A stretch of DNA of 64,000 nucleotides from Burkholderiales bacterium (GTDB taxonomy: Bacteria; Pseudomonadota; Gammaproteobacteria; Burkholderiales; Burkholderiaceae_C), in the NCBI GenBank assembly GCA_947451035.1, contig CANFXR010000003.1:221-64220 (forward strand). The letters run 5' to 3'. The translations under genes were made by a program, and so were the position numbers. Of the stretch, positions 11,544-59,916 are shown in pieces; the stretch's first letter is position 1, and each line of letters starts with the position of its first letter. The notes under the pieces were generated by a model, which worked only from the letters and a program-made list of their open reading frames with translations, did no database searches and had not been told where the DNA came from.

Positions 11544-12440
11544 ATGAGCATCTCCGCCACCTCGAACTCCCATGAACGCGGCTTGCAGGTGGCCGTGGCC
11601 TTCTGCCTGCTCGATGTGTGCCTGACGGGGGGCGCGGCGTTTGCCTCGACCTCGCTCACCATCATGAGCGACCTGCTCAAGGAGTCGACTGACTTCCTGG
11701 CCGTGCTGGCGGCGTACCTCACGGTGCGCGCGGTGCGTCGCGCACCCGACGAGCGCTACGGCTACGGCATCGGCAAGCTCGAGAACCTGGTCAGCATGGC
11801 CATCGCCGTGGCGATGGTGGCGTGCGCGGGGTTCATCCTGATACAGGCGTCGCATCACCTGCGCGATCCGCAGCCCACCGAAGGCACGCTGCCCGGCATC
11901 GTGATCTTCTCGACCTATGCGGCGATCGGTTTCGGCATCTCGTTGCGCAACCGGCTCGAGCTGCGCAAGCGCGAGTCGGCGATCCTCGAATCACAGGCCC
12001 AGCTGTGGTTTTCCAAGGCGTGCTTCGACGCGCTGATGGCGCTCACGCTGATCACGCAGGTGGTGTGCCACGGGCAGCGCTGGAGCTTGTATCTGGATCC
12101 GATCGCGTCGCTGCTCGGCGTATTTTTCCTGCTGCACGCGGCCTGGGCGATCACCAGTTCATCGGTGGGTGACCTGCTCGATGCCAGCCTGTCCGAGCAC
12201 CTCCAGTTGCGCATCCTGCGCCAGCTGGTCGAGCGCTTCGACGACTACGACCGGCTGCACAAGATCCGCACCCGGCGCTCCGGGCCTCACGTGTACGTCG
12301 AAGTCTTTTTGCAGTTCGACCCCGCGCTGCTGATGCGCGAAGTGCAAAACCGCATCAACGCGATTGCCGCCCAGATCACCCGCGAGATTCCCGGCACGCA
12401 GGTGGTCATCGTGCCGTCGTGCGAGGCCCCTGCGGACTGA
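11544..12440 (+). CDS. Cation diffusion facilitator (CDF) family transporter
   Basis: Six-TM N-terminal part with CDF-like TM1/TM2 (ASTSLTIMSDLLKESTDF) and a cytoplasmic C-terminal domain (YVEVFLQFDP...). Confidence 0.75.
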   Translation: MSISATSNSHERGLQVAVAFCLLDVCLTGGAAFASTSLTIMSDLLKESTDFLAVLAAYLTVRAVRRAPDERYGYGIGKLENLVSMAIAVAMVACAGFILIQASHHLRDPQPTEGTLPGIVIFSTYAAIGFGISLRNRLELRKRESAILESQAQLWFSKACFDALMALTLITQVVCHGQRWSLYLDPIASLLGVFFLLHAAWAITSSSVGDLLDASLSEHLQLRILRQLVERFDDYDRLHKIRTRRSGPHVYVEVFLQFDPALLMREVQNRINAIAAQITREIPGTQVVIVPSCEAPAD

Positions 12441-12689: not shown

Positions 12690-12789
12690 CGAGAAGCTGC
12701 CTTGTGTGAGCGTGTGCGGCTCGACCTGACAACCTCGCGCTGACAGGCCGGCCGGGCCGGATTTTGCCCTCGCCGCGCCGCTGACTCGC

Positions 12790-13653
12790 TCACTCGCCGA
12801 GAAAGTGCTTGCGGTAGCGCGCCGGCAGGTCGTCCAGGCGGATGAGCATGGGCAGATCGGCGGTGTTGAATTCCGGGTCCCAGGCCGGTGGCCCCAGCAC
12901 CTTGGCGCCGCAGCGCAGGTAACCCTTGATCAGCGCGGGCGGCTCGACCGGCAGATCGCAGCGCAGCTGGTCGACCGGCAGCGGCAGGCGCGGACGAACC
13001 TGCCAGTCGATGGGTGCCAGGTGGGTGGCGCTCAGTTGCGTCCACAGGCTGGCGGCCACGTGGCCACCATCGCGCATGCCCACGCTGGCGCAGCCGATCA
13101 TCGTGTCGAGTTCGTTGCGCTTCATGAAGTCCGCGAGCGCGGCCCACAGCGCGAGGATGGCGCCACCCGATCGCCAGTCCGGGTGCACGCACGAGCGGCC
13201 CAGTTCGGCGATGCGCGTGCGCATCGCGCGCAGACGGGTCAGGTCGAATTCGGTCTCGCTGTACAGGCCGCCCACGCGCTTGGCCGCGGCCGGTGTCAGC
13301 ACGCGGTAGGTGCCGATCACGGGGCCGGGCTCGCCATCGGTGCTCACGCGCAGCAGCAGGTGTTCGCAGTGGTCGTCGAACAGGTCGGCGTCGTGGCCGC
13401 TGGGCGTGCCGGACGGCACCGACACGCGCGCACCCATTTCCTCGACGAACACGCGGTGGCGCAGTTGCTGTGCCAGTCGCACTTCATCGAGGTTGCGTGC
13501 CCACACGGCTTCGAAGGTGACGGGCGCGGTGCGGGCCCGCGGTTGCCGGTGCATGACCGGATGGGACGCCACCTGCACCGGGATGGAGCGGAACGGGTTC
13601 TTGCTCGGACGCAGATCGAACAGCGGCAGGGTGGGCATGGGCACGTCCCTCAT
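12790..13653 (-). CDS. GNAT-family lipid N-acyltransferase, OlsB-like (ornithine/amino-lipid synthesis)
   Basis: ATG at 13653 is preceded by AAGGAGAA. Typical OlsB/hemolysin-like GNAT motifs are present (LRHRVFVEEMGA, YRVL, SETEFDL, ELGRSCVHPDWR). Confidence 0.7.
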   Translation of the reverse strand: MRDVPMPTLPLFDLRPSKNPFRSIPVQVASHPVMHRQPRARTAPVTFEAVWARNLDEVRLAQQLRHRVFVEEMGARVSVPSGTPSGHDADLFDDHCEHLLLRVSTDGEPGPVIGTYRVLTPAAAKRVGGLYSETEFDLTRLRAMRTRIAELGRSCVHPDWRSGGAILALWAALADFMKRNELDTMIGCASVGMRDGGHVAASLWTQLSATHLAPIDWQVRPRLPLPVDQLRCDLPVEPPALIKGYLRCGAKVLGPPAWDPEFNTADLPMLIRLDDLPARYRKHFLGE

Positions 13654-13703
13654 CAACTTCTCCTTGGGTTTGGGAGATGCTCGGCGCCGCCGATGAATTC
13701 CCC

Positions 13704-13732
13704 GTGACGGTTTCTTGACGAAGCCGTGACAG
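13704..13732 (-). promoter_or_regulatory. Pho-box-like array (three 7-mers at 11-bp spacing) facing the OlsB-like gene
   Basis: The minus strand reads CTGTCAC-ggct-TCGTCAA-gaaa-CCGTCAC, against the consensus CTGTCAT-n4-CTGTCAT. It lies 51 nt upstream of the ATG. Confidence 0.5.
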
Positions 13733-13769
13733 TGGCGCGAATGAGGCGGCACGCGCGCGGCAGTTGCTG

Positions 13770-13787
13770 GTGTCAACAGCCTGTCAT
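13770..13787 (+). promoter_or_regulatory. Pho-box-like direct repeat facing the PlcP/LpxH-like gene
   Basis: GTGTCAA-cagc-CTGTCAT. The second half-site matches 7/7. Confidence 0.5.
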
Positions 13788-13811
13788 CTCGCGGCGTGAC
13801 GATGAGCGCCC

Positions 13812-14696
13812 ATGCACACACCTCCCGCCAGCATGGACGACGCCAACAAGGATGCAACCCTGGACGTGCGCACGGTCTGGATCTCGGACCTGCACCTGGG
13901 CACGCCGGGCTGCCAGGCGACCGCGCTGCTCGAATTCCTGCGCACCACCGAATGCCAGACGCTGTATCTGGTGGGCGACATCATCGACGGCTGGCAACTG
14001 CGCCGCTCCTGGTACTGGCCGCAAAGCCACAACGACGTGGTGCAAAAGATCTTGCGCAAGGCACGCAAGGGCACACGCGTGATCTTCGTGCCCGGCAACC
14101 ACGATGAATTTGCGCGCCGCTATGTGGCGCACAACTTCGGTGGCGTGGACATCGTCGAGGAATGCGTGCACACGCTGGCCGACGGTCGCCGCCTGTGGAT
14201 CACTCACGGCGACTTGTTCGACGGCGTGATCCAGTGCGCCAAGTGGCTGGCCTATGCGGGCGACGCCGCCTATGAATTCACGCTCAAGCTGAACCGCCGC
14301 TTCAATGCGGCGCGCGCGAGGCTCGGTCTGCCGTACTGGAGCTTGTCGCGCTTCTTGAAGCTCAAGGTCAAGCGTGCGGTCAGCTACATGGGCGACTTCG
14401 AGGCCGCGCTGGCCGCCGAGGCGCGCAAACGCGGCCTCGACGGCGTCGTGTGCGGGCACATCCACCACGCCGAGATCCGCCAGGTCGACGGGGTGCTGTA
14501 CTGCAACGACGGCGACTGGGTTGAAAGCCTCACCGCGCTGGTCGAGCACCACGACGGGCGGCTCGAAATCATCGACCACAGCGCCGAGGCGCAGCACAGC
14601 GTGGCGCCAGCCCAAGCGCCCCGATCCACCCCCGCGCTGCAGCCTTTGCCCAGCGGTGTGGCGATCGGTCGCATCGAGATCTCGCCGGGCTCCTGA
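13812..14696 (+). CDS. LpxH-family metallophosphoesterase, PlcP-like (phospholipase C of lipid renovation) or UDP-2,3-diacylglucosamine diphosphatase paralog
   Basis: Metallophosphoesterase motifs are present (ISDLHLG, VGDIIDGW, GNHDE, THGD, GHIH), as is the WYWPQSHNDVVQK block typical of this subfamily. An alternative start is ATG 13833. Confidence 0.7.
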   Translation: MHTPPASMDDANKDATLDVRTVWISDLHLGTPGCQATALLEFLRTTECQTLYLVGDIIDGWQLRRSWYWPQSHNDVVQKILRKARKGTRVIFVPGNHDEFARRYVAHNFGGVDIVEECVHTLADGRRLWITHGDLFDGVIQCAKWLAYAGDAAYEFTLKLNRRFNAARARLGLPYWSLSRFLKLKVKRAVSYMGDFEAALAAEARKRGLDGVVCGHIHHAEIRQVDGVLYCNDGDWVESLTALVEHHDGRLEIIDHSAEAQHSVAPAQAPRSTPALQPLPSGVAIGRIEISPGS

Positions 14697-14750
14697 GCTC
14701 GCGCGCCCATGCGGCGAGCGGGTTGCCCCGCTCGCGCAAATCGCGCGCCG

Positions 14751-15617
14751 TCAGGCCGCAGGGCCCTGCTGCATCAGCGCTTGCCCCATGCGGATGCGCT
14801 GACCGGTGGTGATGCCCTCGCACAAGCTGAACCCGGGCGGGGCGAACACCAGGATGGTCGAGCCGTGCTGGAACCAGCCCATCTCCTGACCCTTGGCAAA
14901 GCGGGCCTGGCAGGCGATCTCGTTCGCGCCCCGGTAGCGCAGGTGCAGCAGCACATCCAGAAAGTGCAGCCGGATGCTGGCCACCAGGATGGCGGCCACC
15001 GGCACCAGCGCGATGGGCTGGCCGCCGCGCTGCAGCCGCAGCCGCAGCACGGCGCGCTCGTTCTTGCAAAACAGCTGCTCGACACGCGCCAGCGCGATCG
15101 GGTTGACGTTCCAGGTGTCACCACTCAGGTAGCTCAGGTGCTCGACGTCGCAGTCCTGCGGCGCATGGAAGCGGTGGTACATCGCCGAGGTCAGCCGCAA
15201 GGTCACGTAGGTTCCGTTGCGGAACGCGCTGGTGTCTTGCGTGGGCCCGAACAGGTCCTTGATCGCGTACGGAAAGCCCTTGGCCTGGAACACCTGGCCG
15301 TCTTCAACCTGCCCGCACGCGCCGACTATCGCGTCACACGGGCTGCTCAGGATGTCGGTGCGCGCATCGATCGTGCGCGCACCGTCCTTGAGTTCGCGCG
15401 TGAAGCAATCGTGCAGACTGGCAAAGCGCTGCTGACGCGCGTCGCTGAGGTCCAGGTCGGTGAACAGCCGCCACACCGCGATCGACGCGCTGGCCACCCA
15501 CGGGTGACGGATCTGGCTGAACCAGCCCATCGCGCGCGTGAGCAGCATGCGCGGAACGCGGTTGGTCAGCAGGAAATTGAGGTCTTCGTTGGCGACGATT
15601 CTGCGCAGCGGATTCAT
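14751..15617 (-). CDS. Phosphatidylserine decarboxylase-related (pyruvoyl-dependent) protein
   Basis: Psd-family pattern with a G-S-T self-cleavage site (FQHGSTILVF) near the C-terminus. ATG 15617; an in-frame GTG at 15626 is also possible. Confidence 0.7.
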   Translation of the reverse strand: MNPLRRIVANEDLNFLLTNRVPRMLLTRAMGWFSQIRHPWVASASIAVWRLFTDLDLSDARQQRFASLHDCFTRELKDGARTIDARTDILSSPCDAIVGACGQVEDGQVFQAKGFPYAIKDLFGPTQDTSAFRNGTYVTLRLTSAMYHRFHAPQDCDVEHLSYLSGDTWNVNPIALARVEQLFCKNERAVLRLRLQRGGQPIALVPVAAILVASIRLHFLDVLLHLRYRGANEIACQARFAKGQEMGWFQHGSTILVFAPPGFSLCEGITTGQRIRMGQALMQQGPAA

Positions 15618-15619
15618 GG

Positions 15620-15637
15620 TTTTCACGGTCCTGTCAA
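15620..15637 (+). promoter_or_regulatory. Pho-box-like direct repeat facing the aminotransferase gene
   Basis: TTTTCAC-ggtc-CTGTCAA, ending 46 nt before ATG 15683. It overlaps the 5' end of the Psd-like gene. Confidence 0.4.
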
Positions 15638-15682
15638 TTGAGGCTAGTAAACAGCGGGTTGGGCATCAACACACACACATTC

Positions 15683-17335
15683 ATGGACGAATCCTTTGCT
15701 CTATCTGCCTTGGCGCTGGGCGTGTTCGCCTGGGCGTTCCCGCGCGCCAAGCAGCGGCTCGAGCTGTCGCGCGCCAAGCACCGCTCGCTGGCCGGCCATT
15801 CGCGCATGGCCAAGCGCGTGGCCGGGCTGGTCCCCGGCTACGCCTACGACGAGGACGACTTTTTCGGGTCTGACGGCGCCAGCGCTGACGTGATCGCCCG
15901 CCGGCGTGCGGGCTTCGAGCAACTGACGCGGCTGTACGACGAGCGTTACCCGCGCAGCGCCGCGATGACCGCCGAGGCGCGCGAGGGCGTGTCCGACTTG
16001 CAGTTCACCAGCAGCTACCGCGTGCCGTTCCAGTACAGCCCGTACCTGCGCCAGCACCTGAAGTCGGGCAGCTTCTTGCAGGCGTCGCACGGCGTGACGG
16101 TCGAAGACCTCGACGGCAACGCGTTCTACGACCTGACCGGCTCGTACGGCGTCAACGTGTTCGGCGTCGACTTCTACAAGGAGTGCATCGACGAGGGCGC
16201 GGCCAACGTGCGCGCGCTCGGCCCGGTGCTCGGTGCGTATCACCCGTGCGTGCTCGACAACGTGCAGCGCCTGAAGGCGATTTCCGGACTCGACGAGGTG
16301 TCGTTCCACATGTCGGGCACCGAAGCCGTGATGCAGGCGGTGCGGCTGGCGCGGTATCACACCGGTCGAACGCACCTGGTGCGCTTTTGCGGCGCGTACC
16401 ACGGCTGGTGGGGCGATGTGCAGCCCGGCCCCGGCAACCCGCTGCCGCCGCGCGAGACCTACACGCTGCGCGACATGCACGACAACGCGCTCAAGGTGCT
16501 GCGCACGAGGCGCGACATCGCCTGCGTGCTGGTCAACCCCTTGCAGGGACTGCACCCGAACGCCGGCGCGCCGGCCGACTCGTCGCTGGTCGACAGCGGC
16601 CGCTGCGCCGGCTTTGACCGCGAGGCCTACACCGCGTGGCTGCGTGAACTGCGCGCGGTGTGCACCGAGCGCGGCATCGTGCTGATCTTCGACGAGGTGT
16701 TCGTGGGCTTTCGGCTCGCGCCGCGCGGCGCGCAGCAGTACTTCGGCGTGGCCGCCGACATGGTGGTCTACGGCAAGACGCTGGGCGGTGGGTTGCCGGT
16801 GGGCGTGGTGTGCGGTCGCGCGGCGCTGATGAAGCGCTTTCGCGAGGACCGCCCGGCCGATCTGTGCTTTGCCCGCGGAACCTTCAACGCCCACCCGTAC
16901 GTCATGGGCGCGATGAACGCGTTTCTCCGACGGCTCGACAGCGCACCCGTGCAGGCGATCTACGACGGCATCGACGCGCGGTGGGAGCAGCGCGCGCAAC
17001 GCTTCAATCAGGCGCTCGAGGCGGCGGGCGTGCCGGTGCGCATCGCGAACCTGCAGTCGATCTGGACGGTGTTCTACACACAGCCCGCGCGCTACAACTG
17101 GATGCTGCAGTTCTACCTGCGGGCACATGGGCTGGCGCTGAGCTGGGTGGGTTCGGGTCGCATCATCTTCAGCCTCAACTACAGCGACGCCGATGTCGCC
17201 GAGGTGCAGCAGCGCTTCGTGGCCGCGGCGCGCGACATGCAGGTCGCCGGCTGGTGGGACGGTGCGGCGACGAGCAACCGCTTGATCCGCCGCGGCATCC
17301 TGCGCGAGATGCTGCAGCGGCGGTTTCGACGCTGA
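15683..17335 (+). CDS. Class-III (GSA-aminomutase-like) PLP aminotransferase with an N-terminal extension of about 130 aa
   Basis: Class-III motifs are present (FHMSGTEAVMQAVRLAR, LIFDEVFVGFR, YGKTLGGGLPVG). The N-terminus has a hydrophobic segment (FALSALALGVFAWAF). Confidence 0.75.
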   Translation: MDESFALSALALGVFAWAFPRAKQRLELSRAKHRSLAGHSRMAKRVAGLVPGYAYDEDDFFGSDGASADVIARRRAGFEQLTRLYDERYPRSAAMTAEAREGVSDLQFTSSYRVPFQYSPYLRQHLKSGSFLQASHGVTVEDLDGNAFYDLTGSYGVNVFGVDFYKECIDEGAANVRALGPVLGAYHPCVLDNVQRLKAISGLDEVSFHMSGTEAVMQAVRLARYHTGRTHLVRFCGAYHGWWGDVQPGPGNPLPPRETYTLRDMHDNALKVLRTRRDIACVLVNPLQGLHPNAGAPADSSLVDSGRCAGFDREAYTAWLRELRAVCTERGIVLIFDEVFVGFRLAPRGAQQYFGVAADMVVYGKTLGGGLPVGVVCGRAALMKRFREDRPADLCFARGTFNAHPYVMGAMNAFLRRLDSAPVQAIYDGIDARWEQRAQRFNQALEAAGVPVRIANLQSIWTVFYTQPARYNWMLQFYLRAHGLALSWVGSGRIIFSLNYSDADVAEVQQRFVAAARDMQVAGWWDGAATSNRLIRRGILREMLQRRFRR

Positions 17336-17388
17336 GCTCAGCCGGCTGACGGCCCACGGGCCGCCGGCCGGCTCACGAGCGCCGAGGC

Positions 17389-17997
17389 TCAATCAGCACG
17401 AACGTGTGGGGTCGTCTCGACCCACTCGCCGCGCAGCAGTTGCAACGGGGCGCGGTGGTAGAGCTTGATGTCGTGGAACGGGTCGCTCAGGATCTTGCTC
17501 ATCCAGACCAGCCCGGTGGCCAGGTCCTGCTGGACCCACAACTGACCCACCCGCACGAACAGACCGGCGGCGCCGAGAGCGAGCCAGCCGATGCCCACGT
17601 CATGCAGGTAGGCGCTGAACGACGTGGCCGGCGCGATCAGGTTGAACACCGACGGTGAGGCCCACAACAGCAGAGGGATCGCGGCCCACACGGCGAGCAG
17701 GACGATCTTGCGGCGGATGTTGTAGCCGACCTTGACCTCTTCCTTGAAGGCGTCGGTGACCTGGTTGAGTTGGTCGTAGCCGCGCGGCTCGAAGAAGAAG
17801 TGCCCGGCCTGACGGCTGGTCATCGACACGCCCCAAGCGAGGATGGCCGCCATCGCCGGATCCACGAACAGCAGCCCGTAAGAGATCACGAAGCAGATCG
17901 CGCTCAGCAGGTGCAGGCTCTGGTTGATGCGGCTGTGGTGGTAGTAGCGGTGGTCGTCCCAGCGCTGCTCTTCGAGTGCTTGCAGAAATTGGTTCAC
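17389..17997 (-). CDS. Mpo1-like (DUF962) membrane protein
   Basis: The coding-looking part of a longer ORF. A GTG start at 17997 is preceded by AAGG. It carries HSRINQSLH (H-x4-N-x3-H) and GHFFFEPRG blocks resembling DUF962, and three to four TM helices. Confidence 0.5.
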   Translation of the reverse strand: MNQFLQALEEQRWDDHRYYHHSRINQSLHLLSAICFVISYGLLFVDPAMAAILAWGVSMTSRQAGHFFFEPRGYDQLNQVTDAFKEEVKVGYNIRRKIVLLAVWAAIPLLLWASPSVFNLIAPATSFSAYLHDVGIGWLALGAAGLFVRVGQLWVQQDLATGLVWMSKILSDPFHDIKLYHRAPLQLLRGEWVETTPHVRAD

Positions 17998-18075
17998 GGC
18001 ATGCCTTGGTGGTTGTGGTCGAAGGGCGGGTGCGCTGCAAAGCGCGACTCGCGCCGGCGATGTTGACGACCTTGC

Positions 18076-18093
18076 GTGAAAGCGGCGTGACGG
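18076..18093 (-). promoter_or_regulatory. Weaker Pho-box-like repeat facing the Mpo1-like gene
   Basis: The minus strand reads CCGTCAC-gccg-CTTTCAC, 79 nt upstream of GTG 17997. Confidence 0.3.
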
Positions 18094-18162
18094 TCGCACC
18101 GTGCCGCGGCGAATGTGGCGCCTTGTCATCAAGTTGTTGCGATCGGCGTGCAGCATGGTGCG

Positions 18163-19395
18163 ATGGATTTGTCGGACATGCCCAGCATCGCGGCCTCTCA
18201 CCCTGTGGCGGACCGGCCATCGCTGCGCCTGGCGGTGGTCACCGAAACCTACCCGCCCGAGGTCAACGGCGTGGCGCTCACGCTGGCGCGCGTGGTCGAG
18301 GGCCTGCACCGGCGCGGCCACGACGTGCAACTGATCCGTCCGCGGCAGAACCCGGCCGATGCGCCCCGCACGAGCCCACGTTTTCAAGAGGTGCTGATGC
18401 GCGGGCTGCCGATCCCCAACTACCCGTCGCTGCGCATGGGGCTGCCGGCGCGCCGCGCGCTGATCCGGCTGTGGGGCGAGCAGCGCCCCGACGCCGTCCA
18501 CATCGCCACCGAAGGGCCGCTGGGCTGGTCGGCGCTGAGCGCGGCTGCCTACCTGAAGCTGCCGGTCAGCTCGGACTTCCGGACCAACTTTCACGCCTAC
18601 AGCCGCTACTACCGAATCGGCTGGCTCAACCGGCCGGTGATGGCCTATCTGCGCTGGTTCCACAACCGCACCGGCCGCACCATGGTGCCCACCGACGCGC
18701 TGCGCCGCGAGCTCGAGCTCATCGGGCTGCGCAACCTGAGCGTGGTCTCGCGCGGGGTCGACACCGCCGGCTTTTCACCCGACCAGCGCAGCGACGACGT
18801 GCGCCGCAGCTGGGGCGCGGAGCCCGACGACCTGGTGGTCACCTGCGTCGGGCGTCTCGCGCCCGAGAAGAACCTGGGCGTCGTCTTGCGCGCCTTCGAG
18901 GCGATCCGCGCCGTGCAGCCGCGAGCACGTCTGGTGTGGGTGGGCGACGGCCCGCAGCGCGATGAGCTGCACGCACTGTGCCCGTCGGCCTTCTTTGCCG
19001 GCCACCGCCACGGCGAGCAGCTGGCCGCGCATTACGCCTCGGCCGATCTGTTCTTGTTTCCCAGCCTGACCGAGACCTTCGGCAACGTCACCACCGAAGC
19101 CATGGCCAGCGGCCTGGCGGTGGTGGCCTACGACCACGCCGCCGCCGCCCAACTGATACGCCACGGTGACAACGGCCTGCTCGCGCCGTGCGACGACGAG
19201 CCCGCCTTCGTGCAGGCCGCGCTTGATCTGGCCGCCCACCCCGAACGCCGCCGCACCCTGGGCGCCCAGGCCCGGCGCAGCGCGTGCGAGCTCGACTGGG
19301 ATGTGATCGTCGAGCGCTTCGAAGGTGTGGTCGCGTCGCTGATCCAGCCACCGCGCCTGTGCAGGCTTGCTCCTGTCACGAGGGTAAAACTATAA
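18163..19395 (+). CDS. GT4-family glycosyltransferase (Agt-like glycolipid synthase candidate)
   Basis: N-terminal LRLAVVTETYPPEVNGVA and C-terminal FLFPSLTETFGNVTTEAMASGLAVVA (E-x7-E region) are typical of GT4. The start could be ATG 18163 or 18178. Confidence 0.8.
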   Translation: MDLSDMPSIAASHPVADRPSLRLAVVTETYPPEVNGVALTLARVVEGLHRRGHDVQLIRPRQNPADAPRTSPRFQEVLMRGLPIPNYPSLRMGLPARRALIRLWGEQRPDAVHIATEGPLGWSALSAAAYLKLPVSSDFRTNFHAYSRYYRIGWLNRPVMAYLRWFHNRTGRTMVPTDALRRELELIGLRNLSVVSRGVDTAGFSPDQRSDDVRRSWGAEPDDLVVTCVGRLAPEKNLGVVLRAFEAIRAVQPRARLVWVGDGPQRDELHALCPSAFFAGHRHGEQLAAHYASADLFLFPSLTETFGNVTTEAMASGLAVVAYDHAAAAQLIRHGDNGLLAPCDDEPAFVQAALDLAAHPERRRTLGAQARRSACELDWDVIVERFEGVVASLIQPPRLCRLAPVTRVKL

Positions 19396-19520
19396 AAACA
19401 GCCCACTGCACCCAATAGAATTTTCGGGAGACCTTGGAAACCTGAGGTCGTTGCATCCAGCCGCGATGATGGCGCGCCACGGGTGTGGGTCGTTGCCGGT
19501 TATCGAGCCGAGGCGCGGTG

Positions 19521-20402
19521 ATGATCAAGCCGATGGACAACGAAAAGCTGGCACGCGCCGCAGTCTGGGTGTCGGCGTCCGCGGTGATGTGGTGTCTGGC
19601 TGCAGCCATCGCCAGCACGTCGCTGACATTGATCGCCGATGTGGTGAACGCCTCGCTGGATCTGGCCGCCTGTGTGCTGGCTTATGTGACGTTGCGGCTG
19701 CAGCGGGGCACCTATCGCGCCTTGCTTGATTACGGCGTGGGCAAGCTTGAGGCCATCGCTTCGCTTTTCATCGGCTTGCTGGCTGGCGGCGGTGCGGCAT
19801 TTGTTCTGTACGAGGCTTTTCGCGCGCTGGTCAATCCGCAGCCCGTGTCTGGCGGCGGCATTGTCTGGGGCCTCATCGGGTGCTGGGTGATCAGCGGGCT
19901 TTGCGGGCGTTTGTGGTGGCAGTTCAAGCGGCAGCTTTCGCATGGCGATTCGCCGATAACAGCCGCCCAAATGCACATACACCTCATCAGCTGCTGGACG
20001 TCGCTCGGGGTTTCGGTGCCACTGGCGTGTTCGCTGGTCTTCAACGCCGGCTGGGTGCGTTACCTGGATGTCACGATTTCTGTGGCGCTGGGTCTGTTTG
20101 CGGCCCACGTGGGCTGGGGCATGGTTCGCCACTCGTTGGGCAACATGGTCGATCAGTCCCTGGACGAACCTTTGCAGGTCATCATCAACCGACACCTGGT
20201 CGAGCATTTCGAGACTTACGGAATGTTCGAAAAGGTTCGATCGCGCACCTGTGGCACCGACATCTTTATCGAGATATTTCTGAACTTCCAGCCGCACACG
20301 TCCATCGGCGACATTCAGGTGGTGTTCGATGCCATCAAAGGTGGCATCGAAAGCGACATCCACAAATCGCACGTGACCATGATCGCGGCTGCCGTGAAAT
20401 AG
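19521..20402 (+). CDS. Second CDF-family transporter (paralog of 11544..12440), lower GC
   Basis: Same architecture as the first CDF (ASTSLTLIADVVNASLDL, C-terminal IFIEIFLNFQP). The codon third positions are visibly richer in A/T than in its neighbours. Confidence 0.7.
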   Translation: MIKPMDNEKLARAAVWVSASAVMWCLAAAIASTSLTLIADVVNASLDLAACVLAYVTLRLQRGTYRALLDYGVGKLEAIASLFIGLLAGGGAAFVLYEAFRALVNPQPVSGGGIVWGLIGCWVISGLCGRLWWQFKRQLSHGDSPITAAQMHIHLISCWTSLGVSVPLACSLVFNAGWVRYLDVTISVALGLFAAHVGWGMVRHSLGNMVDQSLDEPLQVIINRHLVEHFETYGMFEKVRSRTCGTDIFIEIFLNFQPHTSIGDIQVVFDAIKGGIESDIHKSHVTMIAAAVK

Positions 20403-20558: not shown

Positions 20559-20647
20559 GGTGGAAGCGGTGAGATTCGAACTCACGGTGGGGTTACCCCC
20601 ACGGCAGTTTTCAAGACTGCAGCCTTAAACCGCTCGGCCACGCTTCC
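20558..20647 (-). tRNA. tRNA-Ser (anticodon UGA), CCA encoded
   Basis: The reverse complement folds as a cloverleaf. It has acceptor GGAAGCG/CGCTTCC, anticodon stem GCAGT/ACTGC with loop CTTGAAA, a long variable arm (CGTGGGGGTAACCCCACC) and T arm GTGAG-TTCGAAT-CTCAC, and it ends in ACCA. Confidence 0.9.
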
Positions 20648-59166: not shown

Positions 59167-59916
59167 ATGAACGGAGCTGTGTTTGTGTCTGGTAAAAAGA
59201 TGTCCGGCTATACACTTACCTCTACCTTGCTCAAGGGATACAGAAAAGCAGCGGTCGATAACGCGAGAGAACTACAGTACGAAGCGGCCCTGCTTCTAGC
59301 CAACAACCATTTTTCACGCGCATATTTTTTGGCGACGGCTTCCATCGAGGAAATTGGGAAAGCCGTCCAAGCCTTCGATGCGTTAGGGCGAAACGTAAGA
59401 GACACAGAGATATCAACTCGTGTCAGGCTTAACTTCCAGGATTACTCGAAAAAGCTCGCGGCTGCAGTGTTCCCATGGATGTTACGTGACCCTAAAAATC
59501 GCGAGTCAGTAGCGCTATTTATTGAGACTCTGGTAGAAGCCAAGAACGCCAGTGAGCCATCGCTATTCGTGGGTATCGAACCACAAGGGATGGACATTCA
59601 TACTCCCTTCGCAGTGGTTCGTCGTGAAATGGCCGAAGAATGTGTGCGGATGGCACGAACCATATTTTCGTATGCTGCGCCGCATGTATTGGATGGTCAT
59701 TACAAGGTTCGCACCAAGGCGGAGGATGATTTTTTTGTAATGAAACCTTCGTCCGTTTTGAACATGTCGAGCGGGGCAGATTTCTGGCAGTACTACATAG
59801 CGTGCATGAAATCCGGGGATGCGGCTTTTGAGGCGGCATTGATGGACTACACCAAAAAATATCTAGCAAAGAATGAAAAGTACAAGGGCGCAGACCTTGG
59901 CGGACTCGAAGCCTGA
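59167..59916 (+). CDS. AbiV-like (HEPN-superfamily) abortive-infection family protein candidate
   Basis: The N-terminal helix pair ..AVDNARELQYEAALLLANNHFSRAYFLATASIEEIGKA.. resembles the AbiV family signature as I remember it. The gene sits in a markedly AT-richer islet. The start is ATG 59167 or 59200. Confidence 0.45.
   Translation: MNGAVFVSGKKMSGYTLTSTLLKGYRKAAVDNARELQYEAALLLANNHFSRAYFLATASIEEIGKAVQAFDALGRNVRDTEISTRVRLNFQDYSKKLAAAVFPWMLRDPKNRESVALFIETLVEAKNASEPSLFVGIEPQGMDIHTPFAVVRREMAEECVRMARTIFSYAAPHVLDGHYKVRTKAEDDFFVMKPSSVLNMSSGADFWQYYIACMKSGDAAFEAALMDYTKKYLAKNEKYKGADLGGLEA

Follow-up and report, generated by a model that had tools for sequence, protein, structure and literature searches.

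A conserved gene module beside plcP in a Burkholderiales contig: a predicted Pho-regulated lipid-renovation locus with possible head-group tailoring

What do six lipid-related genes do together when they lie side by side as three head-to-head pairs, and which of them form a unit? We asked this of positions 12790-19395 of a 64,000-nucleotide stretch (the window, below) of the Burkholderiales bacterium contig CANFXR010000003.1 (assembly GCA_947451035.1). The six genes, named A to F, are the following.

Gene A: 12790-13653, minus strand; 287 aa; OlsB-family GNAT N-acyltransferase (Acetyltransf_5, PF13444)
Gene B: 13812-14696, plus strand; 294 aa; Metallophos protein (PF00149), by sequence a PlcP orthologue
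Gene C: 14751-15617, minus strand; 288 aa; pyruvoyl-type decarboxylase of a distinct subfamily (PS_Dcarbxylase, PF02666)
Gene D: 15683-17335, plus strand; 550 aa; class-III pyridoxal phosphate (PLP) aminotransferase (Aminotran_3, PF00202), probably membrane-anchored
Gene E: 17389-17997, minus strand; 202 aa; helical membrane protein, remote Mpo1-like/DUF962 relative
Gene F: 18163-19395, plus strand, with an alternative start at 18178; Agt2-type glycosyltransferase of family GT4, predicted glucuronosyl-diacylglycerol synthase

As a whole the locus is best explained as a PhoB-controlled lipid-renovation locus in which E, D and C tailor a lipid head group, and we give this reading a probability of roughly 0.6. 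This figure is a compromise, as the two parts of the reading differ in confidence. That the region is a Pho-regulated lipid-renovation locus, with PhoB control predicted from its promoters, is very probable; the amino-glycolipid chemistry suggested for E-D-C is tentative and less likely than not. The regulated-renovation reading is advanced because of the orthology of B and F to known enzymes, the Pho-box-like sites, the conserved synteny and the fusion of D with E, which are presented in turn below.

The window has a GC content of ~68%, and its raw lists of open reading frames (ORFs) are crowded by spurious frames. Frames were chosen by codon-position GC, which favoured a single frame at each position; the GC content of third codon positions (GC3) was 0.83-0.91 across the six genes. 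Additionally, the independent gene calls of an identical contig from a metagenome-assembled genome (MAG; GCA_947451405.1) agree on genes A to F. Both lines of evidence bear out the layout of the original prediction, a reading of the sequence alone that had proposed six genes in three head-to-head pairs: A/B, C/D and E/F are divergent, with two convergent junctions between them. Its family calls held for five genes by Pfam and NCBIfam, and the sixth, DUF962/Mpo1 for gene E, stands as remote homology only.

The two genes with the clearest counterparts are B and F. Several 'plasmid' records of PLSDB proved to be chromosomes or pieces of chromosomes, which allowed both proteins to be compared directly with validated enzymes. 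The mislabelled records were CP090106.1, NZ_CP137508.1 and NZ_CP131792.1; one such record is a 3.7-Mb Sinorhizobium meliloti sequence labelled 'pSymB', and others are Pseudomonas aeruginosa pieces that carry plcP-agt1 and plcH-plcR-agt2. Gene B matches Metallophos (PF00149) with E 1.6e-12 and belongs to the calcineurin-like metallophosphoesterases, as a distant relative of LpxH. Over 235 aa it shares 58% identity with P. aeruginosa PA3219 (PlcP, encoded upstream of agt1 and cyaB), and it shares 52-53% with the S. meliloti gene neighbouring sinR/sinI, from this position presumably SMc00171. These values exceed the identity of the validated PlcPs to one another, which is 46-47% (PMC8528852). LpxH was considered and rejected as an identity for gene B: the LpxH equivalog models gave it 46 and 39 bits where 134 and 190 are required, and the LpxH structures in the PDB were matched only at E 6e-5. 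By sequence, gene B is a PlcP orthologue and thus a predicted phospholipase C that would release diacylglycerol (DAG).

Gene F has the two-domain architecture of GT4 (GT-B) enzymes (PF13439 with PF00534/PF13692), and its best solved relative is PimA, a GT4 enzyme with a lipid acceptor. Identity is 51% over 94% of the length to the P. aeruginosa glycosyltransferase adjoining plcR/plcH, which from its neighbourhood is presumably PA0842 (Agt2), and only 35% to Agt1 (PA3218). PA0842 alone yields glucuronosyl-diacylglycerol (GADG) in Escherichia coli (PMC8528852). Gene F is of the Agt2 type, a predicted orthologue of this GADG synthase, and the use of UDP-glucuronic acid (UDP-GlcA) by its product is supported by the linkage of ugd, encoding UDP-glucose 6-dehydrogenase, in 17 related loci. 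The PlcP and Agt calls of the original prediction thus hold, B and F being orthologous to experimentally validated PlcP and Agt2, and its general GT4 call can be narrowed to the Agt2, glucuronosyl-DAG, type. As a separate observation, Ralstonia wenshanensis carries (locus L087, 8031-9717) an F/Agt2 homologue of 56% identity followed by a PAP2 phosphatase, without E-D-C.

In order to see which of the genes travel together, an alignment of the E family was used to scan one genome per GTDB species. The scan found at least 598 species; the best 80 loci, mostly of Burkholderiales, were retained and represent Comamonadaceae/Sphaerotilaceae genera together with Methyloversatilis, Sulfuritalea and Tepidimonas. 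The order and orientation F<E>D<C> can be observed in about 65-71 of the 80, and in five loci (four of Pelomonas/Roseateles and one of Polaromonas) an inversion of D brings E>D>C into one direction. What is conserved is F-E-D-C and not the set of six genes: the E/F and C/D pairs of the original prediction recur across species, and the A/B pair and the six-gene set are not generally conserved. The F-E-D-C core has gene B within 10 kb in 37 loci, and B adjoins C in ~15. LplT, a lysophospholipid transporter that scores over its equivalog cut-off, is also linked in 37 loci, and a GT28 glycosyltransferase similar to diglucosyl-DAG synthase in 19; C>GT28>plcP forms a single co-directional string in 10 loci. 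Outside this group, a Sphingomonas parapaucimobilis replicon encodes C, D and E at 55-60% identity, with a PmtA-like methyltransferase in one operon with E. Betaproteobacterial-type E-D(-C) genes of 60-68% identity were also seen on MAG contigs labelled Cyanobium, Synechococcus and Prosthecobacter (L015, L079 and L076), which are probably mis-binned.

The window was then scanned with the core of the Pho box, CTGTCA-N5-CTGTCA; the consensus used for P. aeruginosa is CTGTCATNNNNCTGTCAT (PMC8528852). With up to two mismatches there are six matches in the 64 kb, and four of these fall within the 376 bp of the three divergent spacers (P ~8e-10, Poisson estimate). The sites of the locus, including one read from the sequence, are as follows.

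13705-13743, minus strand: Pho-box-like array facing A; four tandem (C)TGTCA-type half-sites in 11-bp phase
13770-13787, plus strand: putative Pho box facing B, GTGTCAACAGCCTGTCAT; 1 mismatch to CTGTCA-N5-CTGTCA
15620-15638, plus strand: putative Pho box facing D, TTTTCACGGTCCTGTCAAT; 45 bp before the ATG of D and 3 nt from the ATG of C
18077-18093, minus strand: Pho-box-like site facing E, CCGTCACGCCGCTTTCA; 2 mismatches, 80 bp before the start of E
18123-18140, plus strand: degenerate Pho-box-like site facing F, TTGTCATCAAGTTGTTGC; read from the sequence

The array facing A comprises three overlapping matches to the pattern (13705, 13716 and 13727) and lies 51 bp upstream of the ATG. The box facing B is the best match of the whole window; it precedes the ATG at 13812 by 25 bp and an in-frame ATG at 13833 by 46 bp. 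Because the D-facing box starts only 3 nt from the start of C, and the whole C-D spacer measures 65 bp, C appears to lack the space for a separate promoter; most related loci, and Sphingomonas, share this tight geometry. A sigma-70 consensus promoter could not be found in 12700-19500, which fits activator-dependent promoters.

The sites recur in the relatives. In their F-E spacers we counted 52 matches in 71 spacers, against 1.04 +/- 1.2 expected from Markov shuffles, and in their D-C spacers 26 matches in 65 spacers, against 0.55 +/- 0.62. This is an enrichment of ~50-fold; the rate of the pattern over all 1.35 Mb of the loci is 0.13 per kb. The D-facing box keeps its position and sequence type in related loci, the E side of the F-E spacers carries the same motif type as the E-facing site, and the F-side site corresponds to a conserved CTGTCATCGAACTGTTGCG, a good box. 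As controls, the pattern recovered the published P. aeruginosa plcP Pho box as three phased matches, in tandem like the array facing A, and matched a 24.8-kb Mitsuaria locus only at the plcP and ppk1 promoters. The 19.6-kb Sphingomonas locus has only two matches, at the D promoter and at the promoter of the methyltransferase and E. The regions upstream of P. aeruginosa agt2 and of its Mpo1-like gene have no match with up to two mismatches.

The assignment of gene E required the family rather than the single protein. On its own, gene E scores 16.5 bits on PF06127 against a cut-off of 24 (E 0.009), and nothing in Pfam or NCBIfam lies above threshold. In the E-family alignment, PF06127 is the top family for 13 of 13 members (best E 5.6e-10), and it was only by way of family members and fusion proteins that a remote Mpo1-like assignment could be made; hhalign against a canonical Mpo1-like protein gave E 4.9e-4 with a probability of 32%. 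The invariant residues include D15, H20, N25, Q26, H29, R62, Q63, G65, H66 and E70, with a GHxxxE motif, and H20, N25, Q26, H29, G65, H66 and E70 are invariant in the separate and the fused forms alike. Yeast Mpo1 (DUF962) is an Fe2+-dependent 2-hydroxy fatty acid dioxygenase. Gene E is like Mpo1 in its His/Asn/His and GHxxFE residues, which align with the motif of the canonical P. aeruginosa Mpo1-like protein; it differs from Mpo1-like proteins in falling under the Pfam threshold and in having twice the length of bacterial DUF962 proteins (105 aa in P. aeruginosa). Its AlphaFold model is all-helical (pLDDT 85.5), and Foldseek found no match to this model in the PDB with E <1. Judged by sequence, gene E is a remote relative of Mpo1/DUF962. 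It is conserved as strongly as D, and its public annotation is 'hypothetical protein' everywhere. A lone E homologue of 49% identity, 'Blr4581', was noticed on Bradyrhizobium plasmids (L096, 8001-8639) without D, C or F; these plasmids are conjugative, and the gene lies among toxin-antitoxin genes and insertion sequences.

Proteins of 750-770 aa in which D and E are fused form >120 clusters at 90% identity, many of them from Binatia-type bacteria. Five fusion genes were looked up, at six loci, two of them nearly identical. Each fusion gene is immediately preceded by a gene for a GT4 enzyme 48-54% identical to Agt2, and the neighbours are phosphorus-scavenging genes, namely PlcH/AcpA-type phosphoesterase, Metallophos, phytase-like, GDPD and CHAD genes; a gene for a PEMT-type phospholipid N-methyltransferase follows the fusion gene in two of the five. 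By eye, conserved GTTCA/GGTCA repeats in 11-bp phase were observed ahead of the operon of GT4 and D-E fusion genes in Binatia-type contigs (L090, 6464-6660; L093, 5423-5760; L094, 5350-5660), and this repeat element resembles actinobacterial-type PHO boxes. Other fusions of the D family were P0251, P0250 and P0254, one of 1189 aa having a GT2-like N-terminus; the N-terminal regions of D-family proteins of 872 and 726 aa have no Pfam match.

Gene D contains the PLP-lysine motif YGKTLGGGLP and is preceded by an N-terminal extension of 130 aa, consisting of a hydrophobic helix and then ~110 aa; from this helix the protein is probably membrane-anchored. Its relatives, in >120 full-length clusters at 90% identity and with 76-88% identity to it, are publicly annotated as 'glutamate-1-semialdehyde 2,1-aminomutase'. 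HemL was rejected as an identity for D on the basis of its score (170 bits against a cut-off of 527), the N-terminal membrane extension and the closer similarity to a MycA domain. In a sequence search of the PDB, the best solved relative was the aminotransferase domain of the mycosubtilin synthase MycA (6KFM, E 4e-48), followed by glutamate-1-semialdehyde aminomutases and then by named beta-transaminases and sugar C-6' aminotransferases. The MycA domain converts beta-keto to beta-amino groups. Gene D is most similar to it, and unlike it is free-standing and probably membrane-anchored rather than a domain of a polyketide synthase/nonribosomal peptide synthetase. Ethanolamine-phosphate phospho-lyase is also an enzyme of the class-III fold; as an identity for D it is unlikely, since no PDB match at E <= 1e-10 bears that name and D seems to be membrane-anchored.

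These results also bear on the simplest account of the locus, namely that unrelated housekeeping genes (psd, a hemL paralogue, a hypothetical gene and a generic glycosyltransferase) lie together by chance and share no regulation. The public annotations of D and E just mentioned agree with such a view. So does the lack of pst or pho genes, which were sought as an internal control for the Pho box, among the ORFs checked in the 64-kb window. Chance juxtaposition is already contradicted by the comparative data, in which the synteny extends over ~70 species and two proteobacterial classes, fusions of D with E occur, the spacers carry conserved Pho-box-like sites at ~50 times the chance rate and D fails the HemL cut-offs; we regard it as extremely improbable.

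Gene C matches PF02666 with E 4e-56 (190 bits) and scores 161 bits on TIGR00163, the phosphatidylserine decarboxylase (PSD) equivalog, over its cut-off of 112. An alignment to 7CNW was used for comparing residues. Gene C keeps the equivalents of E. coli Psd Asp90, His144 and His147 and the Gly-Ser-Thr cleavage motif (HGST), and it has Arg at the position of the phosphate-contacting Tyr137, a variant found in 15% of PSDs. The phosphate-binding residues of Psd, tried as a discriminator of the substrate of C, were therefore uninformative, the change from Tyr to Arg being a normal PSD variant. Gene C is ~31% identical to housekeeping Psd and 55% identical to the syntenic Sphingomonas copy, and by sequence it belongs to a distinct subfamily of the PSD family.

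The main rival reading starts from this gene. It supposes that no new lipid is made: C would be an ordinary, inducible PSD feeding a route from phosphatidylserine (PS) through phosphatidylethanolamine (PE) to DAG, by way of PlcP, and on to glycolipid; the methyltransferases would make phosphatidylcholine (PC) for PC-specific phospholipases, and D-E would handle a by-product, for example the released amine head group. It draws support from the equivalog score of C, from the retained catalytic and carboxyl-recognising residues and from the ordinariness of the Arg variant; the C>GT28>plcP string of 10 species can be read as three successive known steps, and PmtA and PEMT are ordinary PE-to-PC enzymes. 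Against it, C forms a separate subfamily, with 31% identity to housekeeping Psd against 55% across classes to its syntenic copy, and D and E are left without a defined role, although they are an invariant core, are fused and are elsewhere operonic with an Agt2-type GT4. D, moreover, is probably membrane-anchored and resembles the MycA domain, and no named phospho-lyase is among its PDB matches at E <= 1e-10. We consider this reading unlikely.

A tailoring role in a phosphorus-free lipid is what we prefer for C. In its intact catalytic residues, and in the attachment of PmtA- or PEMT-type methyltransferases to D/E elsewhere, the module resembles the Psd/PmtA route (PS to PE to PC). It differs in that this C subfamily travels with D-E and an Agt2-type glycosyltransferase under Pho-box-like sites, and in such company an analogue without phosphorus is more plausible than phospholipid synthesis.

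Gene A is less tightly bound to the others. It matches Acetyltransf_5 of the OlsB type (PF13444) with E 1.9e-30 and is 34-35% identical to S. meliloti OlsB, which was recognised from its location next to tme/mutS. The NCBIfam OlsB equivalogs give it 157 and 143 bits, short of their cut-offs of 350 and 320; this failure is weak evidence, because the models are lineage-specific (Rhodobacter, Brucella). A PlsC-type olsA is not present among the 23 called genes of the locus (L001) within ~10 kb of gene A, and the S. meliloti olsA, sought for comparison, was not found in the stretch examined. In other bacteria olsA may be unlinked from olsB. The OlsB-like call of the original prediction is upheld, then, by the Acetyltransf_5 family and the similarity to S. 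meliloti OlsB, and falls short at the equivalog cut-offs and the olsA partner. Gene A can be classed as an OlsB-family aminolipid N-acyltransferase and is a probable lyso-aminolipid synthase. Only 4 of the 80 related loci link it to the core module, of which it is a peripheral, lineage-specific neighbour; in L068 and L082 its homologue heads an A-plcP-agt1 operon. Compared with the OlsB/OlsA system, it has the same domain, resembles S. meliloti OlsB and is preceded by a strong Pho-box-like array, and it differs in its sub-threshold scores, the absence of olsA nearby and the rarity of its linkage to the core.

A mechanism that would join these parts can be proposed as follows. Upon phosphate limitation PhoB would be activated, and PlcP (gene B) would cut phospholipids to DAG, as expected from its orthology to tested enzymes. 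Gene F would then combine DAG with UDP-GlcA into GADG, an anionic phosphorus-free lipid, again as predicted from orthology, and gene A would start an ornithine-type aminolipid. E-D-C would constitute a line for head-group tailoring at the membrane. In it, gene E, as an Mpo1-like iron/oxygen enzyme, may oxidise or oxidatively decarboxylate the lipid head group to a carbonyl, gene D, the fusion partner of E in other phyla, may convert the carbonyl to an amine, and gene C may remove a carboxyl group. This line would yield a phosphorus-free glycolipid that contains nitrogen, is zwitterionic or cationic and could replace PE, and the PmtA- or PEMT-type methyltransferases of Sphingomonas and of Binatia-type bacteria could turn it into a PC-like version. 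The suggestion of the original prediction that the locus serves an additional phosphorus-free lipid or head-group modification is backed in silico by orthology, Pho-box-like sites and co-inheritance. We go further only speculatively: E-D and an Agt2-type GT4, joined in Proteobacteria by a dedicated PSD-like decarboxylase, might make an unrecognised class of nitrogen-containing, phosphorus-free glycolipids from GADG, in amino- and amino-decarboxy-forms and, given an attached methyltransferase, in betaine-like forms, with keto-GADG/UGL as the product of the Mpo1-like oxidase and the first intermediate. This proposal is, in our estimate, possible but more doubtful than the regulation.

Several points weigh against the tailoring reading, and they concern its chemistry, its distribution and one of its sites. 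The glucuronic acid (GlcA) of GADG is a pyranoside without the free 2-hydroxy-acid group that Mpo1 attacks; a 4-amino uronic acid is a beta-amino acid, whereas a pyruvoyl decarboxylase needs an alpha-amino acid; and the roles of E and C fit together uncleanly on a GlcA head group. Gene C may simply act on PS, the Arg variant occurring in genuine PSDs. P. aeruginosa makes GADG with Agt2, yet no D or E adjoins agt2; the D-E fusions of Binatia have no neighbouring PSD; and a D-E pair without a neighbouring GT4 occurs in Sphingomonas and Methyloversatilis. The F-side site of the window has four mismatches to the strict pattern and is weak when taken alone. Two routes were compared with respect to the chemistry. 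An ArnA/ArnB-like route, in which E yields a 4-keto-pentosyl lipid that D aminates, fits E and D and leaves C without a role. A route from an alpha-keto acid through an alpha-amino acid to an amine fits E, D, C and the methyltransferases, and needs an alpha-hydroxy acid that is absent from GADG.

In another alternative F-E-D-C modifies lipid A, the core of lipopolysaccharide or a polysaccharide, in parallel with the aminoarabinose logic of Ugd/ArnA/ArnB. The 17 loci with a linked ugd and the presence of the lipid transporter LplT as a neighbour are compatible with it, and oxidation or decarboxylation of a uronic acid combined with transamination mirrors the aminoarabinose pathway. F, on the other side, is orthologous to a glycosyltransferase that makes GADG from DAG, and the conserved neighbours include no ArnT-type/GT-C transferase, flippase or undecaprenyl-phosphate GT2; the linked partners are instead plcP and the diglucosyl-DAG-synthase-like GT28. 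We judge this alternative quite improbable. Tailoring of sugars by oxidation followed by transamination is familiar from Ugd/ArnA/ArnB in aminoarabinose synthesis and from NeoQ/NeoN in the 6'-amination of aminoglycosides. The tailoring of a GADG-derived lipid that we prefer would share with them the conversion of a uronic acid or sugar hydroxyl first to a carbonyl and from there to an amine, and ugd in the relatives and the class-III sugar C-6' aminotransferases among the relatives of D point the same way. It would differ from them in employing an Mpo1-like oxidase instead of an NAD/FAD enzyme, an aminotransferase that is not of the DegT/ArnB type and a membrane lipid rather than a nucleotide sugar as the substrate.

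Among the major responses of bacteria to scarce phosphate, whether in soils, waters or infections, is the exchange of phospholipids for phosphorus-free lipids, and such renovation alters the sensitivity to antibiotics and phages. The known toolkit consists of PlcP, Agt, OlsBA and BtaAB, and it does not explain every lipid observed. The PlcP/Agt/OlsB framework itself has already been described (PMC4796936, PMC8528852, bioRxiv 10.1101/2023.05.30.542800). Members of the PlcP-Agt pathway are PA3219, PA3218 and PA0842 of P. aeruginosa, the plcP-agt-dagK genes BCAL2364-2366 of Burkholderia cenocepacia and the Agt proteins of SAR11, Phaeobacter and Agrobacterium. The present locus is like that pathway in the B and F orthologues (58% and 51% identity), in the Pho-box-like sites of its promoters and in its predicted products DAG and GADG. 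Unlike in that pathway, plcP and the glycosyltransferase gene do not share an operon here, dagK is missing, and the Agt2-type glycosyltransferase of the locus is locked to E, D and C, which have no counterpart in the described systems.

In the literature searched we found no paper that describes or mentions the F-E-D-C module. Nothing relevant was found on bacterial DUF962/Mpo1, on aminoglycolipids, on PSD together with an aminomutase and the Pho regulon or on lipid remodelling in Comamonadaceae, and papers on D. alaskensis and Methylosinus do not mention the module genes. The statement of the original prediction that three genes of the locus have no described role in renovation is in keeping with this. 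C, D and E are tightly co-inherited with F. A keto-GADG/UGL lipid has been reported in B. cenocepacia and P. aeruginosa without an assigned enzyme. In P. aeruginosa the canonical Mpo1-like/DUF962 gene (L084, 8468-8785; 105 aa; PF06127, 145 bits) is two genes away from plcP-agt1, separated from them by cyaB, and has no clear Pho box upstream; its product is a possible candidate for the enzyme that makes this lipid.

What is newly defined here is a conserved, apparently Pho-controlled module of three enzymes that is tied to a predicted GADG synthase in hundreds of species and across phyla. If it does make an amino- or betaine-type glycolipid, this would be a new lipid class and would provide the first bacterial function for DUF962/Mpo1-like proteins, and the widespread 'HemL' and 'hypothetical' annotations would be corrected; the module should interest specialists in bacterial lipids and in phosphorus ecology.

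The flanks of the cluster contain cation-efflux, DsbD and ApbE genes, with no visible link to it. Genes for cation diffusion facilitators (CDF) lie on both sides, at 11544-12440 and at 19485-20402 (plus strand), and a tRNA gene (20561-20647, minus strand) follows the second; GC falls to 0.60 over 19.5-20.5 kb. Further along the window, an AbiV-type HEPN gene (59167-59916, plus strand; PF18728, E 2.8e-22) lies between the genes for a sigma-54 activator and a glutathione S-transferase (GST), and it is possibly an abortive-infection defence gene.

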